A DNA stretch of 64,000 bases from Candidatus Omnitrophota bacterium (GCA_018895275.1 JAHIOQ010000051.1:46409-110408), one strand, 5' to 3'; shown: positions 628 to 63,296, counted from the stretch's first letter. A program made the numbers and translations. Notes: generated from the letters alone by a model not told the origin.

Positions 628-777
628 CAAGTTAATAGGACGCAGATTTTCGCAGATAAATCAGGATTTAAAAATTCTATGCATCTGCGCCTTAATCAAT
701 TTATTTCCTTGAACTCTTTATTCTTAAAATCTTGATAATCTGCGCTCATCTGCGTCCAAAAAGGAAATTCCTATACC
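628..777. mobile_element. miniature TIR-bounded element, copy A (about 150 bp); a shortened relative of the element at 63086-63296
   Basis: The left end GGACGCAGATTTTCGCAGATAAATCAGGATTTAAAAAT (638-675) and the right end at 720-757 are inverted repeats with about 30 of 38 matches. The flanks CAAGTTAATAG and AAAAAGGAAATTCCTATAC are also shared with the 63 kb copy. The right TIR encodes ATGAGCGCAGATTATCAAGATTTT (MSADYQDF) on the minus strand. Confidence 0.55.
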
Positions 778-1234
778 ATAAATTTATTTTCATTTTCCCT
801 TTATTCACAAAAACGTAAACGGAATAATTATACAATATATTGCAATATTTTGCTACCTTTTTGTTTATAGAAAATAGATACTTAGACCGCGGCTTGCCTG
901 CCTCTCGCATCCCGTAGTAGTTAACCCGGTATAATTCAGCGCCAATGCGTTTCTATCCATGCAGCTGCCTGCCTATTCAATTCCAACGGTGCAGGCGCAT
1001 GGCCGCCCTCAAATTCAAACCATGCGGTTTGCCAATTGCGTTCTTCTAAAAACCGGCGGTCATCCTTCATATGTTCAGCCGATACCGGCAAGAAAAATTA
1101 TTATACTCAGCGATATTATTATCAGTATCTTCATGAAAATATTATACTGCATGAAATCGGAAATCGACAACTTTTTTTTGAATACCATTTTTGAATACCG
1201 GGAATCGAAGATTGAAAAATATAATGGCTTTCAA

Positions 1235-2356
1235 TCAAACGTCATTCGCATTTGCCCGGCTGTAACCGCAAAGAAAATCATCCCGGAAAGAGATAAACCT
1301 GTCTTCGGCTATTGCCTGCCGGATTCCGATCATCATGTTTATATAAAAGGCAATATTATGCAAAGAAAGAAGCTGGGGGCCAAGCATCTCATTGGCATAA
1401 AAAAGATGGCGCACATAAGCGCGGGTAAAGTTCCGGCACAGGTAGCAACCGCATTGCGCGTCTACGGGAGAAAAATCCTCCGTGTATTTGGCATTCTTCA
1501 GATTAAGCTTTCCCTGCGAGGTAAACGCGCTACCGGTCCTGCCGTAACGCGTGGGGATAATACAGTCAAACATGTCCGCGCCGTGCCCTACGCTCTCCAG
1601 AATATCTTCCGGCGTACCCATGCCCATAACATAGCGGGGCTTATTCTCCGGCAAAAGCGGAACGGTATAATCAATAATCTCATAAATCAGCTCTGCCGGC
1701 TCTCCCACGCTTACTCCGCCTACGGCATAACCGTCAAAAGACATGTTTGTCAATTCCTCCGCGCAATACTGCCGTAAATCCTTATAGGTACTGCCCTGGA
1801 CAATCGCAAACACCATGCCCGGATTGCTTTTTTTAAATTCCCGGCTCAAGCGCGCCCAATTCAGGGTACGCCGCACGCTAATCTTTACCTCGTCATAATC
1901 ACTCGGATACCCCACGCACTCATCAAGCACCATGGAAATATCGCTAGCAAGGTCATCCTGTATTCGCAGGCATTCCCGCGGGCCGATAAAATGGACGGAC
2001 CCGTCGATATGCGATTGAAACTTCACTCCCTCGTCCGTAACCTTGCGCAGGAGAGAAAGGCTAAACACCTGATAACCGCCGCTGTCGGTTAAAATCGGGC
2101 CATGCCAATTCATAAAATTATGCAGGCCGCCGGCCGCGCGGATAATCTTCGTCCCCGGCCTCAGATAAAGATGATAGGCATTGCCGAGTATAATCTGGCA
2201 GCCGAGCTCTTCCAGCGCATTCGGAGGCAAGGCCTTGACCGTTGCCTGCGTGCCTACCGGCATGAAAACAGGAGTCTGGATAATACCCCTATTTGTATAT
2301 AATAATCCTGTGCGCGCTTTTGAATTCTTATCCTTATGAACTATTTTAAATGCCAT
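1235..2356 (-). CDS. tgt: queuine tRNA-ribosyltransferase (tRNA-guanine transglycosylase)
   Basis: The predicted product carries the Tgt N-terminal motif [24 protein letters not shown], the zinc site CxCxxC (CGCYLC) and the segment MGMGTPEDI. The start was moved to the internal ATG at 2356 (MAFKIV), which aligns with Tgt N-termini and has a GGGAG Shine-Dalgarno 7 nt upstream. Confidence 0.9.
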
Positions 2357-2394
2357 CTTTAAACTCCCTATACCCTTGTATTCTTTTTTAAATC

Positions 2395-3438
2395 CTATGC
2401 TATAAGCATACAATCCCCGTAACTGAAAAAACGGTACTTTTCCTTTACGGCCTCTGCGTACGCCTCCCGCGCTATCTCCCTTCCGGCAAAGGCATACACA
2501 AGCATCAGCAGCGTTGTCTTCGGCAGATGAAAATTCGTCAGCAGCATATCCACGGCCTTGAATTCATATCCCGGATAGATAAAGATATCCGTTGTCCCTT
2601 TGCCGTGCTTAAAACGCAATTCACTATTTTCGATATAAGCACAGCTCTCCAGCACACGGCACACAGTGGTGCCCACCGCGCAGATTCTTCCTCCCGAGCG
2701 CCGGATGCGCTCGATCTCACGCGCCGCATCCTGCGGCAATTCGCAGGATTCCGCATGCATCTTATGCTCTTTGATATTTTCCGCGCGTACCGGAGTAAAC
2801 GTGCCCAGCCCGATGTGCAGAGTAAGATATATTAACGCCACGCCTTTTTGCCACAGGCTGTCCAATATCTCCTGTGTAAAATGCAGCCCGGCCGTAGGCG
2901 CGGCGATTGCCCCGGAATTTTTCGCGTATACCGTCTGATAACGCGCGGCGTCGCTTTCCTTTACCGCACGTTTGATGTACGGCGGCAGGGGCATTAATCC
3001 CACACTGTCCAACAGCGTCTCAATGTCCTCTTCCATCTGAAATTCCAAAAGCTTCATGCCCTTACGCCGGGCCGCGTCATCTTCCACACACCGCGCCGTA
3101 ATCCTAGACGGGCTAAAAACAACCTCCGTGCCCGGCTTAAACTTTGCTCCGGGCTTTGCCTTCACCAGATAGGAATTTTTTGCCAGGCGTTCAACAAGCA
3201 GGACATCAACCTGCCTGGTGCCGATTCTGCCGATCAGCCGCACCGGCCTGACCTTAGTATCATTAAGCACCAGGGCATCGCCCGCGTTCAGCTCATCAAT
3301 AACCGTCTTAAAACAGCCGTGCCTTATCGTTTTGCTGCTGCGATCTATACATAAAAGCCGTGATTCATCACGGCGTTCACTCGGAAACTGGGCAATCAGC
3401 TCCTGCGGCAGATAATAATCGAATTCCCGTATATTCAC
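2395..3438 (-). CDS. queA: S-adenosylmethionine:tRNA ribosyltransferase-isomerase
   Basis: 347 aa. The N-terminus [19 protein letters not shown] and the motifs [10 protein letters not shown] and VGTT are characteristic of QueA. It is adjacent to tgt. Confidence 0.9.
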
Positions 3439-3541
3439 TTTTTAATCCTGGAAATTAGCCACAATATAAAAGAAAGCAGCGCACTCAACAATAAAAAGCT
3501 TTCCCATCTGACTTATCTGATTCATGTTTTCATCCAATTTT

Positions 3542-61844: not shown

Positions 61845-61973
61845 CCCTCTCCTTGGGTTAAAATAATGCTACGGATTTTATTATACAAAAAATTTATCAT
61901 AAGTCAATCTTTTTATTCCCGAGCTATTTCCGCTGTAAAAAATTTTAGCAATAATTGTTAATTGTTTTCCTTA

Positions 61974-62185
61974 TTACTTAACAACACTTCCCACAGCAAC
62001 ATCCTTATCCGGTGAAATTATCACAATTTTATCAACATCGGAAGCCGCCAAAAGCATCCCCTGGCTCTCCACTCCGCGCAGCACCGCCGGTTCAAGATTG
62101 TTGATAATCACAACCTGTTTATTAATAAGCTCTTCTTTAGTATAAAACAATTTTATCCCGGCAACAATCTGTTTAACCTGAATAG
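61974..62185 (-). pseudogene. truncated tRNA-binding domain gene fragment (CsaA / MetG C-terminal type)
   Basis: The minus strand encodes VKQIVAGIKLFYTKEELINKQVVIINNLEPAVLRGVESQGMLLAASDVDKIVIISPDKDVAVGSVVK followed by a stop. This matches the C-terminal half of the OB-fold tRNA-binding domain. An in-frame stop lies immediately upstream and there is no start codon. Confidence 0.6.
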
Positions 62186-62339
62186 GTTATGCGTTCAACT
62201 TAATTTTTCTAAAACATAGATTATATTAAAGCATCAGAAAGACTGTAATCTTAAAAAGCTTACGCCGTAGTCAGCATTTCGTGGGTACAGCGAAAGTGTA
62301 TCCATTTATCACGAAATAGGCAAAGCTGATTACGCGTCT

Positions 62340-62978
62340 TCATCGGTTAACCTTTGTTTTTTTCATCACGCATCCGGCCAAAAGTCCCATGCCCCACAAC
62401 AGCAGGCTTGAAGGCTCAGGGATAACGGCAATAGTCGTGCCGAACGTATCTCCCAATATTTCCGTGAAATTATCCGCTCCGACAAGCGTCGTATCTTTTA
62501 TCGGCGTACCTTCGGTATCAAACCAGATCAAGGTACCGGTTGTTGTATTTAAGGCCTCAAACGTAATCGTCGCAAATGTCCCGCTGCTGTTCAGGGGCGG
62601 ATCAAGTAAACCGACGGCCGCCTGATAATTGATTTCTCCCAGGGTGTTATCAACAGCATTCTCAAAATATTCTCCAAAAGAAAAGTTGGAATGATACGCG
62701 GCATCCGAAATATTCGTATCCGGACCGGTGATTCCGCTTCCGTCCTCGCCCGGGTCTATCACCTTTAAATACGACGGAATGAACTTGATCCAGTTTAAAA
62801 GATTTGTGAACCCCTCCTCCTGCGGATTTTCCAGGACCACATCAACCGTAAACTGCTCTCCCACATCCACATTTTGTTTCGACGGAACAAGCCGTAAATC
62901 AGGCGCGGCATTACTATCCCGCGAAAAACCGATGAGACATACTGCCATTACTATTAAGATAATACCCACGTTCTTCAT
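62340..62978 (-). CDS. PEP-CTERM sorting domain protein
   Basis: The C-terminus AVIPEPSSLLLWGMGLLAGCVMKKTKVNR has the PEP motif, a TM helix and a basic tail. The start is at MKNVGIILIV with a GGGAGG Shine-Dalgarno. Confidence 0.8.
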   Translation of the reverse strand: MKNVGIILIVMAVCLIGFSRDSNAAPDLRLVPSKQNVDVGEQFTVDVVLENPQEEGFTNLLNWIKFIPSYLKVIDPGEDGSGITGPDTNISDAAYHSNFSFGEYFENAVDNTLGEINYQAAVGLLDPPLNSSGTFATITFEALNTTTGTLIWFDTEGTPIKDTTLVGADNFTEILGDTFGTTIAVIPEPSSLLLWGMGLLAGCVMKKTKVNR

Positions 62979-63085
62979 AATTATCCTCCCTCTCGTAAAT
63001 ATGGTATTGTCAAAACTTAACCACAGAAGCACGGAAATATGGAAAAGGTCAATTCACTACTCTTTTTATTTTTAACACCCCTTTA

Positions 63086-63296
63086 GCACAAGTTAATAGG
63101 ACGCAGATTTTCGCAGATAAATCAGGATTAAAAAATTCTATCATCATTGCATTCTCATAAACCCTCTCCAAAAAACCATATCCAAGTTTGTTATAAACTA
63201 TATAGAAAATTTTGATGATTTTCTCAGTTAGCTCTTTATTCTTAAAATCTTGATAATCTGCGCTCATCTGCGTCCAAAAAGGAAATTCCTATACAA
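63086..63296. mobile_element. miniature TIR-bounded element, copy B, carrying a 5' GxxExxY gene fragment
   Basis: TIRs at 63099-63136 and 63238-63275. An internal minus-strand ORF (63136-63267) reads MSADYQDFKNKELTEKIIKIFYIVYNKLGYGFLERVYENAMMIEF, then runs into TIR sequence. Confidence 0.6.

Follow-up and report, generated by a model that had tools for sequence, protein, structure and literature searches.

Relics of an inverted-repeat-bounded GxxExxY cassette in a Candidatus Omnitrophota genome and their counterparts in distant bacteria and archaea

Introduction

What kind of element leaves behind short hairpins that begin with the first codons of a gene? The question is raised by a 64,000-nt stretch of the genome of a Candidatus Omnitrophota bacterium (GCA_018895275.1, JAHIOQ010000051.1:46409-110408; referred to below as the window), in which two inverted-repeat elements, named A and B here, and a further single arm, C, are joined to pieces of genes of the GxxExxY (PF13366) family. 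An earlier note on this DNA regarded them as a family of miniature inverted-repeat transposable elements (MITEs) of this genome. We found that A and B are internally deleted relics of a GxxExxY cassette, and that the same cassette is conserved across phyla and across the divide between bacteria and archaea instead of being a family of one genome. With moderate confidence, we interpret A, B, and C as decay products of a horizontally mobile, inverted-repeat-bounded cassette that encodes a predicted nuclease and leaves hairpin relics.

Structures of elements A and B

The 20-mer GGACGCAGATNNNCGCAGAT matches the window five times without a mismatch, at 638 (+), 738 (-), 11359 (+), 63099 (+), and 63256 (-), compared to an expected count of 0.03 from shuffles of the window. 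A and B are the two inverted-repeat elements among these matches, and the remaining match is a further arm at 11359-11392. A repeat search recovered the ends shared by A and B (701-786 with 63219-63304, D4, and 619-680 with 63080-63141, D7) and inverted arms of 34 nt that are 88% complementary to 11359-11392. In the alignment of A and B on the minus strand, the common unit runs from GTATAGGAATTTCC to CCTATTAACTTGT, or, with the ends in a longer form, from GTATAGGAATTTCCTTTTTGGACGCAGATG to ATCTGCGAAAATCTGCGTCCTATTAACTTGT. The identity breaks off sharply, leaving shared flanks that extend 19 nt (5') and 11 nt (3') beyond the arms. The elements placed at 628-777 and 63086-63296 by the earlier note are real and were refined within 1-2 nt; the shared flank of about 10-20 bp was also correctly described, but the arms are about 33-34 nt in length and not 38 bp. 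The features are as follows.

627-776, minus strand: element A, an internally deleted GxxExxY cassette of 150 bp (A/B alignment)
758-776, minus strand: 5' outer module of A, GTATAGGAATTTCCTTTTT, which precedes the arm in many bacterial copies
724-757, minus strand: 5' arm of A, GGACGCAGATGAGCGCAGATTATCAAGATTTTAA, three phased heptamers with the ATG at 749-747 inside
696-749, minus strand: residual ORF (open reading frame) of A, MSADYQDFKNKEFKEIN and stop, 12 N-terminal codons fused to the last codons of the gene
638-671, minus strand: 3' arm of A, minus-strand reading AAATCCTGATTTATCTGCGAAAATCTGCGTCC
63088-63294, minus strand: element B, an internally deleted GxxExxY cassette of 207 bp (A/B alignment)
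63242-63275, minus strand: 5' arm of B, same sequence as the 5' arm of A
63049-63267, minus strand: 72-codon ORF of B, the first 45 codons being the N-terminal part of GxxExxY with the GFLERVY motif
63099-63131, minus strand: 3' arm of B (motif matches and A/B alignment)

Element A is located in the tgt-yajC spacer with its 3' end 32 nt upstream of the yajC GTG at 595; yajC-secDF lies downstream and tgt on the other side. Element B is placed between a dockerin-like gene and a cohesin/PEP-CTERM gene. All genes flanking A and B are on the minus strand, as are both elements. The first arm of each, read on this strand, contains the ATG and is translated as MSADYQDFKNKE... (MSADYQDF...). When paired, the arms form a stem of 10 bp and another of 7 bp, separated by a 3x3 internal loop; the third heptamer is shifted by one base. 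Long hairpin folds were obtained for both A (-41.4 kcal/mol, z = -3.6) and B (-49.9 kcal/mol, z = -2.7).

The coding remnants differ between the two elements. The residual ORF of A, interpreted by comparison with a longer relative (locus L126; L numbers designate loci throughout), joins the 12 N-terminal codons to the last codons, stop, and 3' untranslated region (UTR) of the gene. In B, the junction between 45 codons and the 3' UTR falls at the microhomology ATAGAATTT, and the ORF beyond codon 45 is a read-through of the 3' arm and the flank. These 45 codons match the TIGR04256 GxxExxY model (37.5 bits with a cut-off of 35, E = 2.5e-9), and at the nucleotide level the B ORF is 85% identical to the initial 135 nt of the complete L058 ORF. 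The window also corresponds to part of contig JAKLQU010000027.1 of GCA_022013175.1, labeled Candidatus Omnitrophica bacterium, and both elements are unchanged in a second assembly of the same species (GCA_018897065.1). A and B are short elements bounded by terminal inverted repeats (TIRs) and are non-coding in the sense applied to MITEs: judged from their sequences, both lack the catalytic part of the protein, so that an active enzyme is not encodable by either.

The tgt-yajC spacer is unusually long (640 nt), and the 457 nt between tgt and element A (778-1234) contain no called gene; relatives carry a 677-aa gene between tgt and yajC. A scan of the site of element A and the yajC spacer found no terminator-like site. 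The 3' end of a contig from a read assembly (Logan contig SRR11548473_52465, L174) stops exactly inside the 5' arm of A, as expected if the arm is a repeat that breaks assemblies. As stable hairpins inside operons, the relics cause such assembly breaks and also give rise to spurious calls of small ORFs; in GCA_018897065.1, for instance, a PF13366 gene of 72 aa is annotated at B.

Intact cassettes and their distribution

Longer copies with the same ends revealed the parent structure. The intact cassette (about 0.45-0.5 kb) comprises a 5' arm containing the ATG, an ORF of 131 aa, the stop codon, and directly thereafter the 3' arm. The 5' arm carries three CGCAGAT heptamers about 10 nt apart, and the 3' arm is its imperfect inverse. 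Intact copies were found in a Desulfobacteraceae genome (L058), in Scalindua (L078), in Ratteibacteria (L036), in ANME-1 archaea (L138), and in L128-137 and L178-190. The expectation that intact GxxExxY genes with the same ends occur elsewhere (L058, L078, L036, L128-138, and L178) was thus confirmed, and an intact paralog in the window has related arms.

The arm pattern GGACGCAGATNNNCGCAGATNNNNNNGATT, with 21 specified bases, was used to scan one genome per species (596 Gb), for which we estimate about 0.3 chance matches. It matched at least 119 loci in at least 12 bacterial phyla and in ANME-1 archaea. The hosts among the matches listed are Desulfobacterota, Syntrophia, WOR-3, Latescibacterota, Nitrospinota, Nitrospirota, Planctomycetota (Scalindua and Loosdrechtia), Chloroflexota, Gemmatimonadota, Verrucomicrobiota, Auribacterota, Ignavibacteriales, Chlorobiota, Ratteibacteria, Stahlbacteria, and many metagenome-assembled genomes (MAGs) of ANME-1/Methanophagales; several of the MAGs listed have 3-5 separate loci or contigs each. 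At the protein level, more than 120 clusters, bacterial and archaeal, are 83-100% identical to the L058 ORF. Conservation of the cassette at the nucleotide level, in its ends as well as in its gene, spans very distant hosts.

The Desulfobacteraceae and ANME-1 ORFs share 89% nucleotide identity, with identities of 0.92/0.97/0.79 at the three codon positions; in more distant ORF pairs, these values are 0.9/0.9/0.55. The codon-position pattern together with the high identity indicates purifying selection on the ORF plus a recent transfer across domains, and points to recent gene flow between syntrophic partners. The archaeal copies have outer modules of their own that are common to more than 10 MAGs, and they adjoin archaeal genes such as that of UPF0179; because of these two features, we consider the archaeal setting to be genuine.

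The same results bear on the simplest explanation, i.e., that A and B arose by segmental duplication or by decay of paralogs in this genome, or are a chance repeat. Only three loci were seen in the 82.5 kb scanned of the source genome, and no target-site duplication was found, both of which would fit this explanation. The motif count of 5 against 0.03, the end of the A/B identity only 19 and 11 nt outside the arms, and the presence of the same ends in at least 119 loci of unrelated genomes do not, and we regard it as extremely improbable. Shared flanks extending over hundreds of bp and a lack of further copies, by which the earlier note would have recognized a simple segmental duplication, are not what was observed: the flanks are short and the further copies many.

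Decay of the cassette and its outer modules

Most copies have lost the gene. Seventy-five of the 125 arm instances have an inverted partner within 700 nt (median span, 122 nt), and an ORF of 120 aa or longer is kept in only three among the 125. Differing internal deletions between the same ends are seen in A, B, L126, L018, L104, and a 117-nt ANME-1 form; some are in-frame, leaving ORFs of 72 aa (L018) and 53 aa (L104). The 117-nt form occurs at six ANME-1 loci in four MAGs, including several contigs of one ANME-1 MAG, and an 81-nt form occurs in three Desulfobacteraceae MAGs. The relics are hairpins of 60-300 bp with intact ends, and the deletions often lie at microhomologies. A metagenome scan aimed at the lineage of the window yielded four contigs, too few for an analysis of targets or target-site duplications, but among them was L126, from the window's own sublineage, in which the C-terminal third of the gene survives together with the 3' UTR. 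The comparison with L126 shows that A and B arose from one parent type through separate deletions. Taken together with the codon-position identities, these sequences indicate that the ORF is under purifying selection in some lineages and lost by deletion in others.

Many bacterial copies carry additional modules outside the arms, (C)TTGATAGTATAGGAATTTCCTTTTT on the 5' side and TAATTAACTTGA on the 3' side, and A and B have both. ANME-1 copies combine the same arms and ORF with different modules (CAAGAAAGAATAATTTTTGATAATC and TAAATAGGTAGAAGTTATACTTTATATACA). The modules are optional, since L178 has none. With up to two mismatches, GTATAGGAATTTCC has 38 matches in the examined loci, most of them followed by an arm. 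In L043 (minus strand, ~4356) and L058 (minus strand, ~2633), it is followed by the repeat CTTGTAGGGRCGGCATTTATGACGCCCGTCATTGCGGGTTCGATAAATCGAACCC and not by an arm. The bacterial 5' module GTATAGGAATTTCC may thus be a portable unit, possibly a promoter, shared among elements. A standard -35/-10 pair in this module was considered and dropped, as a sigma-70 scan gave no promoter score.

Hairpins of different heptamer families are nested in one another in L045 and L116. Small GC-rich palindromes (CCTGCCCGCC...GGCGGGTCTG and TCTGCCTGTGCGTGTACGCACGCAGACAGG) were also observed within 3' arms (L058 at 4300-4360, L126, L028, and L089), forming a second, smaller type of nested hairpin. In WOR-3 and other MAGs (L032, L033, L056, L061, L065, L088, L093, and L116), there are intergenic series of ORF-less, phased-repeat arms, built from CACAGAG, CGCAGAT, CACGAAG, CTCTAAC, and AGCTAAnAGC units in a single orientation or nested like Russian dolls.

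The encoded protein

The sole gene of the longer relatives with the same ends (L058, L078, L036, and L138) is that of a small predicted nuclease. An AlphaFold2 model of the 131-aa protein (pLDDT 91) shows a minimal Cas4/RecB-like PD-(D/E)XK fold, and the best Foldseek matches in the Protein Data Bank are Cas4 SSO0001, LHK-Exo, lambda exonuclease, and MGME1, in agreement with the fold suspected in the earlier note. Among 53 sequences of two subfamilies, E34, D73, K85, Q97, and Y101 do not vary, and E83 hardly does. The model and the conservation suggest that the GxxExxY protein is a PD-(D/E)XK nuclease with the predicted catalytic residues E...D...ExK plus Q..Y. A sequence search found no solved structure for it, and no defense-system or phage family matched. 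The family is large, with more than 7,900 proteins below 1e-10 in each of two PF13366/GxxExxY searches (best 8,000 candidates each). A 2012 survey of PD-(D/E)XK proteins (PMC3424549) entered the function of GxxExxY/PF13366 as 'Unknown' and recorded clades in which bacteria and archaea are mixed. The present results provide this family with a testable hypothesis, namely that the protein is the cargo of a compact, inverted-repeat-bounded selfish element.

Conservation and pairing of the arms

In the CGCAGAT-family arms, 95.9% of the cells are paired, and six double-sided changes were counted compared to 1.3+-1.1 in shuffles (0/500). The 5' and 3' arms thus appear to co-vary modestly; examples of compensatory changes are GGACACAGAT/ATCTGTGTCC in L128 and CGCGGAT/ATCCGCG in L138. 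The second and third heptamers are often unpaired and the 3x3 internal loop is conserved. A wobble-bias test on the sense strand gave 11 G:T and 16 A:C, i.e., no G:U preference. Because of the absent G:U bias, the mismatched heptamers, and the conserved loop, pairing at the RNA level alone cannot account for the arms, and their sequence, not only their pairing, appears to be kept.

The elements are also oriented. They lie on the strand of the upstream neighbor in 46 of 61 cases (p = 9e-5) and on that of the downstream neighbor in 40 of 59 (p = 0.009), and they are placed snugly within operons, with gaps of 0-40 nt or ATGA overlaps to the neighboring genes.

These properties raise the alternative that the cassette is an ordinary, often-transferred accessory gene whose arms are an RNA-level device with no part in movement. 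Pairing of the 5' and 3' arms would control translation, protect the mRNA, or form an RNase III site by which, as with rRNA intervening sequences, the cassette is excised from the operon transcript, and the relics would persist as RNA stabilizers or processing sites. The location of the start codon and the upstream GGA in the 10-bp stem, the strong orientation bias and snug placement, the compensatory changes, and the architecture maintained with different heptamers (see below) are all consistent with this. However, the sense strand has no G:U preference, the arm sequence is conserved to the base beyond pairing across phyla and domains, and the phasing of the heptamers by about one helical turn of DNA suggests recognition of the sequence by a protein. 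Rfam gives no support either: Rfam 15 has no match at the gathering score in the window, rRNA included, and over element B only a chance-level SNORD36 match (E = 0.069). Moreover, the precise common ends in unrelated contexts would still require a moving mechanism. We consider this alternative unlikely, though not negligible.

Genomic context and possible mode of movement

Certain operon sites are recurrent, with 8-10 contigs each: ALAD/X/radical SAM, SCP2-like/X/radical SAM, Wzm/X/Wzt, and DUF362/X/ScpA, where X is the cassette gene. A further alternative is a free-standing homing endonuclease gene, with the nuclease cutting the cassette-free allele and repair copying the cassette in; the relics would then be dead and the arms would only regulate expression. 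A nuclease gene wedged among conserved co-directional genes (ALAD/X/radical SAM, Wzm/X/Wzt, and SCP2/X/radical SAM) fits this explanation, and so does the PD-(D/E)XK fold, as supported by the Foldseek matches to the model; PD-(D/E)XK homing enzymes such as I-Ssp6803I are known. But homing needs homologous flanks, and it leaves unexplained the near-identical copies in unrelated contexts, phyla, and domains as well as the short relics multiplied within one MAG (the 117-nt ANME-1 form) or found in three Desulfobacteraceae MAGs (the 81-nt form). Nor was any presence/absence polymorphism found among the retrieved contigs. Homing therefore seems to us a very unlikely explanation.

A recurrent (A)ACTTGA-like motif lies inside both outer modules of many bacterial copies. 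This short direct repeat recalls integrons: the cassette might be moved in trans by a site-specific recombinase, the arms and outer modules forming one hairpin site in a circular intermediate and the crossover splitting that site around the ORF. The small, mostly co-oriented genes with hairpin-forming ends, the junctions of 3' and 5' modules in L043, L080, and L106, and the 22-nt direct repeat on either side of a plasmid gene of Fusobacteria bacterium ZRK30 (see below) would agree with such a mechanism. On the other hand, no integrase adjoins any copy inspected, the neighbors being housekeeping genes, and no integron R''/R' core (GTTRRRY/RYYYAAC) is found in the arms or modules. The copies are single in operons and not in arrays, the ORF is inside the palindrome and not beside it, and the outer modules are optional, being absent in L178 and different in archaea. 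An integron-like origin is accordingly quite improbable.

We favor the interpretation as a mobile cassette bounded by its arms. In this model, the cassette would pass horizontally between distant bacteria and archaea, lodging in short and mostly co-oriented spacers. The two arms would be its cis-acting ends, recognized, during copying to a new site, either by the cassette's own nuclease or by a recombination function of the host. They may also pair in the transcript, enclosing the ORF and hiding the ribosome-binding site and start codon, and, as we propose, nuclease production would thereby stay low and the flanking operon would suffer little interference. The relics in the window are probably inert, except that they would form stable stem-loops, A in the tgt-yajC transcript and B in that of the dockerin-like and cohesin/PEP-CTERM genes. 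Consistent with movement of a unit delimited by the arms, one identical ANME-1 protein occurs in two upstream contexts, with the break exactly at the arm (L158 compared to L162 and L164). As for the decaying GxxExxY-borne mobile element suggested in the earlier note, the decay is evident from intact and deleted copies having the same ends; it is the mobility, and with it the role of the arms as cis-acting ends, that we infer.

Several observations weigh against this interpretation. No target-site duplications, to which the earlier note had directed attention, were found at the boundaries of A and B or in the 108 element listings, in which perfect inverted pairs are counted on both strands. No empty site was found among the contigs retrieved with the exact YajC, cohesin, and Tgt proteins and with Tgt homologs; in relatives whose Tgt is 73-75% identical, the genes are arranged differently, and the failure to recover an empty site results from this difference and from the identity of the same-species assembly at A and B. 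The intact copies give the impression of having settled stably in their operons and of being inherited vertically. Only the three loci noted above were seen in the scanned 82.5 kb of the source genome. In viral contigs, the arm motif is rare (three matches), and searches of plasmid DNA and phage proteins did not contain the cassette, so that no vehicle is evident. The often unpaired heptamers with their conserved loop and the lack of a G:U preference also count against it, at least with regard to pairing in the transcript. Finally, we know of no precedent for a 131-aa nuclease acting as a complete transposase.

Arm C and arms built from other heptamers

The locus at 11359 and the intact paralog of the window comprise the following features.

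11359-11392, plus strand: copy C, a 5'-type arm, GGACGCAGATGAACGCAGATTTACAGGATTTTAA (MNADLQDFK...), without a partner arm of its own
11396-11475, minus strand: 26-codon N-terminus of a different GxxExxY gene (MNFEPLSEKEESIAERIVDAAYALHK...), head-on into arm C
11497-11551, minus strand: leader repeat of a third arm family (GCCACCAAGGCACCAAGGCACAAAGG), upstream of the 26-codon fragment; direct-repeat family D2
33258-33671, minus strand: intact paralogous GxxExxY gene of a second subfamily, 137 aa (PF13366, E = 2e-40)
33636-33674, minus strand: 5' arm of the paralog (AAACCACAAGAT TT CACTAGAT TAA CACACGAT), beginning at the ATG
33228-33266, minus strand: 3' arm of the paralog (ATCTGGTG..ATCGCGTG..ATCGTGTGGTTT), overlapping the stop codon

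Because the plus-strand arm abuts a minus-strand fragment of a different gene with a different leader repeat, the C locus is a chimera of two elements. The fragment at 11396-11475 was assigned to GxxExxY by eye only, and the 32-aa fragment at C gave no NCBIfam match. The earlier note had read a solo TIR here, fused to a third break of the same gene after breaks at codons of about 12, 27, and 45; the breaks in A (codon 12) and B (codon 45) hold, but that at C belongs to another gene, of which 26 codons remain.

The paralog matches TIGR04256 (144.3 bits with a cut-off of 35) and PF13366 (138 bits) and is 46% identical to the cassette ORF. Its arms are an inverted pair (I1, 39 nt, 74% complementary) located exactly at the start and stop of the gene. 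Arms of this second subfamily are built from CACRAGAT units, which are found in the window paralog, WOR-3, ANME-1, and a Wzm/X/Wzt operon, and the arm architecture of the paralog is repeated in L148, L165, and L158. In the ANME-1 form, the arm is upstream of the ATG and untranslated, indicating that the arm matters as nucleic acid, with the odd N-terminal peptides arising as a by-product. The peptide MSADYQDF was thus correctly read from the right TIR in the earlier note, but its coding is incidental. Directly downstream of the paralog lies a toxin-antitoxin pair of the ribbon-helix-helix/MazF-like type (32601-33199); 134 nt of its mazF-like gene (32601-32734) recur with 81% identity at 57891-58024 (D1).

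Brackets of yet other heptamers occur in cultured organisms. CACAGAG triplets bracket GxxExxY genes on a Bacteroides finegoldii plasmid and a Bernardetia plasmid, and the GxxExxY gene of Treponema saccharophilum has a single-unit bracket. Carriers in culture, such as B. finegoldii and Bernardetia, make experiments possible. On plasmid pZRK30-1 of Fusobacteria bacterium ZRK30 (L191), a perfect direct repeat of 22 nt, CAGATTTAATCCGTGTACCTAT, takes the place of inverted arms on both sides of the GxxExxY gene; this could reflect tandem cassettes or a recombination core. The bracket is a property of the gene family and not of one sequence, with the contrary cases of Persicobacter and giant-virus copies, which have no bracket; all six GxxExxY loci obtained in the viral search are giant-virus-like and without arms.

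Further phased-repeat structures in the window were read by eye, and folding of long flanks of other small genes as RNA duplexes gave sprawling, uninformative structures. An ORF-less hairpin of a third phased-repeat family at 28501-28591, with CACnAAG/CTTnGTG units of a period of ~8 nt (GCCACGAAGACACCAAGGCACGAAG ... TTTAGTGTCTTAGTGGC), is located directly upstream of a PilZ gene (28116-28478). Related arms of this family lie at 38747-38786/38994-39048, 34078-34117, 42073-42112, and 11497-11551 (D2 and D3). A PilZ-domain gene at 33748-34092 (minus strand; region 33700-34117) apparently has a third-family bracket, with TTAGTGTCTTGGTG upstream and CACCAAGCACTAAG downstream, so genes besides GxxExxY, such as PilZ, may use the same cassette layout.

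A wider interpretation can be offered tentatively, and we consider it possible rather than probable: GxxExxY and possibly other small genes bracketed by phased heptamers, such as the PilZ gene at 33748-34092, would constitute an undescribed class of mobile cassettes crossing the domains. In such a class, the minimal Cas4-like nuclease would act on its own heptamer arms, or on their hairpin or cruciform, so that new copies of the unit would enter operon spacers as well as the loops of older hairpins. If true, this would explain the nested hairpins, the outer modules specific to the host domain, and the very common 'junk' repeats of this kind in environmental genomes.

Comparison with known systems

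Full-text literature searches covering GxxExxY, PF13366/PDDEXK_3, PDDEXK together with MITE, and the sequence of the arm itself retrieved no publication in which these elements are described. Several known systems share part of their properties. MITEs and their parent TIR transposons, e.g., the Correia elements (CREE) of Neisseria, are likewise short TIR elements with internal deletions that share the ends of a gene-bearing copy, form stable hairpins in transcripts, occupy intergenic spacers, and may be nested. In contrast, the gene of the present cassette encodes a 131-aa PD-(D/E)XK nuclease and not a DDE or other known transposase, and its start codon lies in the 5' arm. Further differences from MITEs are that our searches detected no target-site duplication, that each arm is a triplet of phased heptamers in which the internal loop is conserved, and that the hosts include many phyla and archaea.

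Homing endonuclease genes (the T4 seg and mob genes and I-Ssp6803I) resemble the cassette as small selfish nuclease genes placed tightly between co-oriented host genes and spreading horizontally, with an RNA structure across the start site that probably limits expression. Unlike them, the cassette is bounded by TIRs, its ORF-less hairpin derivatives multiply, and its contexts are unrelated. In the REP/RAYT (REPIN) system, in which REP denotes repetitive extragenic palindromes and RAYT the associated tyrosine transposase, a gene likewise lies between inverted copies of a short repeat, whose hairpin doublets are abundant in intergenic regions without the gene. However, the gene enclosed here is PF13366 and not a Y1/HUH transposase, is multi-copy and often decayed, and is bracketed by heptamers phased at 8-10 nt.

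Integron cassettes with their attC sites are similar in having small, mostly promoter-poor, co-oriented ORFs and an imperfect palindrome with conserved unpaired bases; here, the ORF is inside the palindrome, and there is no intI, R'/R'' core, or array. The intervening sequences of 23S rRNA carry an S23p/Avd-like ORF in Leptospira and Coxiella. They share with the cassette a small, multi-copy ORF within inverted repeats that pair in the transcript and a patchy distribution across phyla, but the cassette copies lie between protein-coding genes instead of in rRNA, and their protein belongs to another family. In kind, the cassette resembles MITEs and their parents, homing genes, and REP/RAYT, but it departs from each of them in a defining feature.

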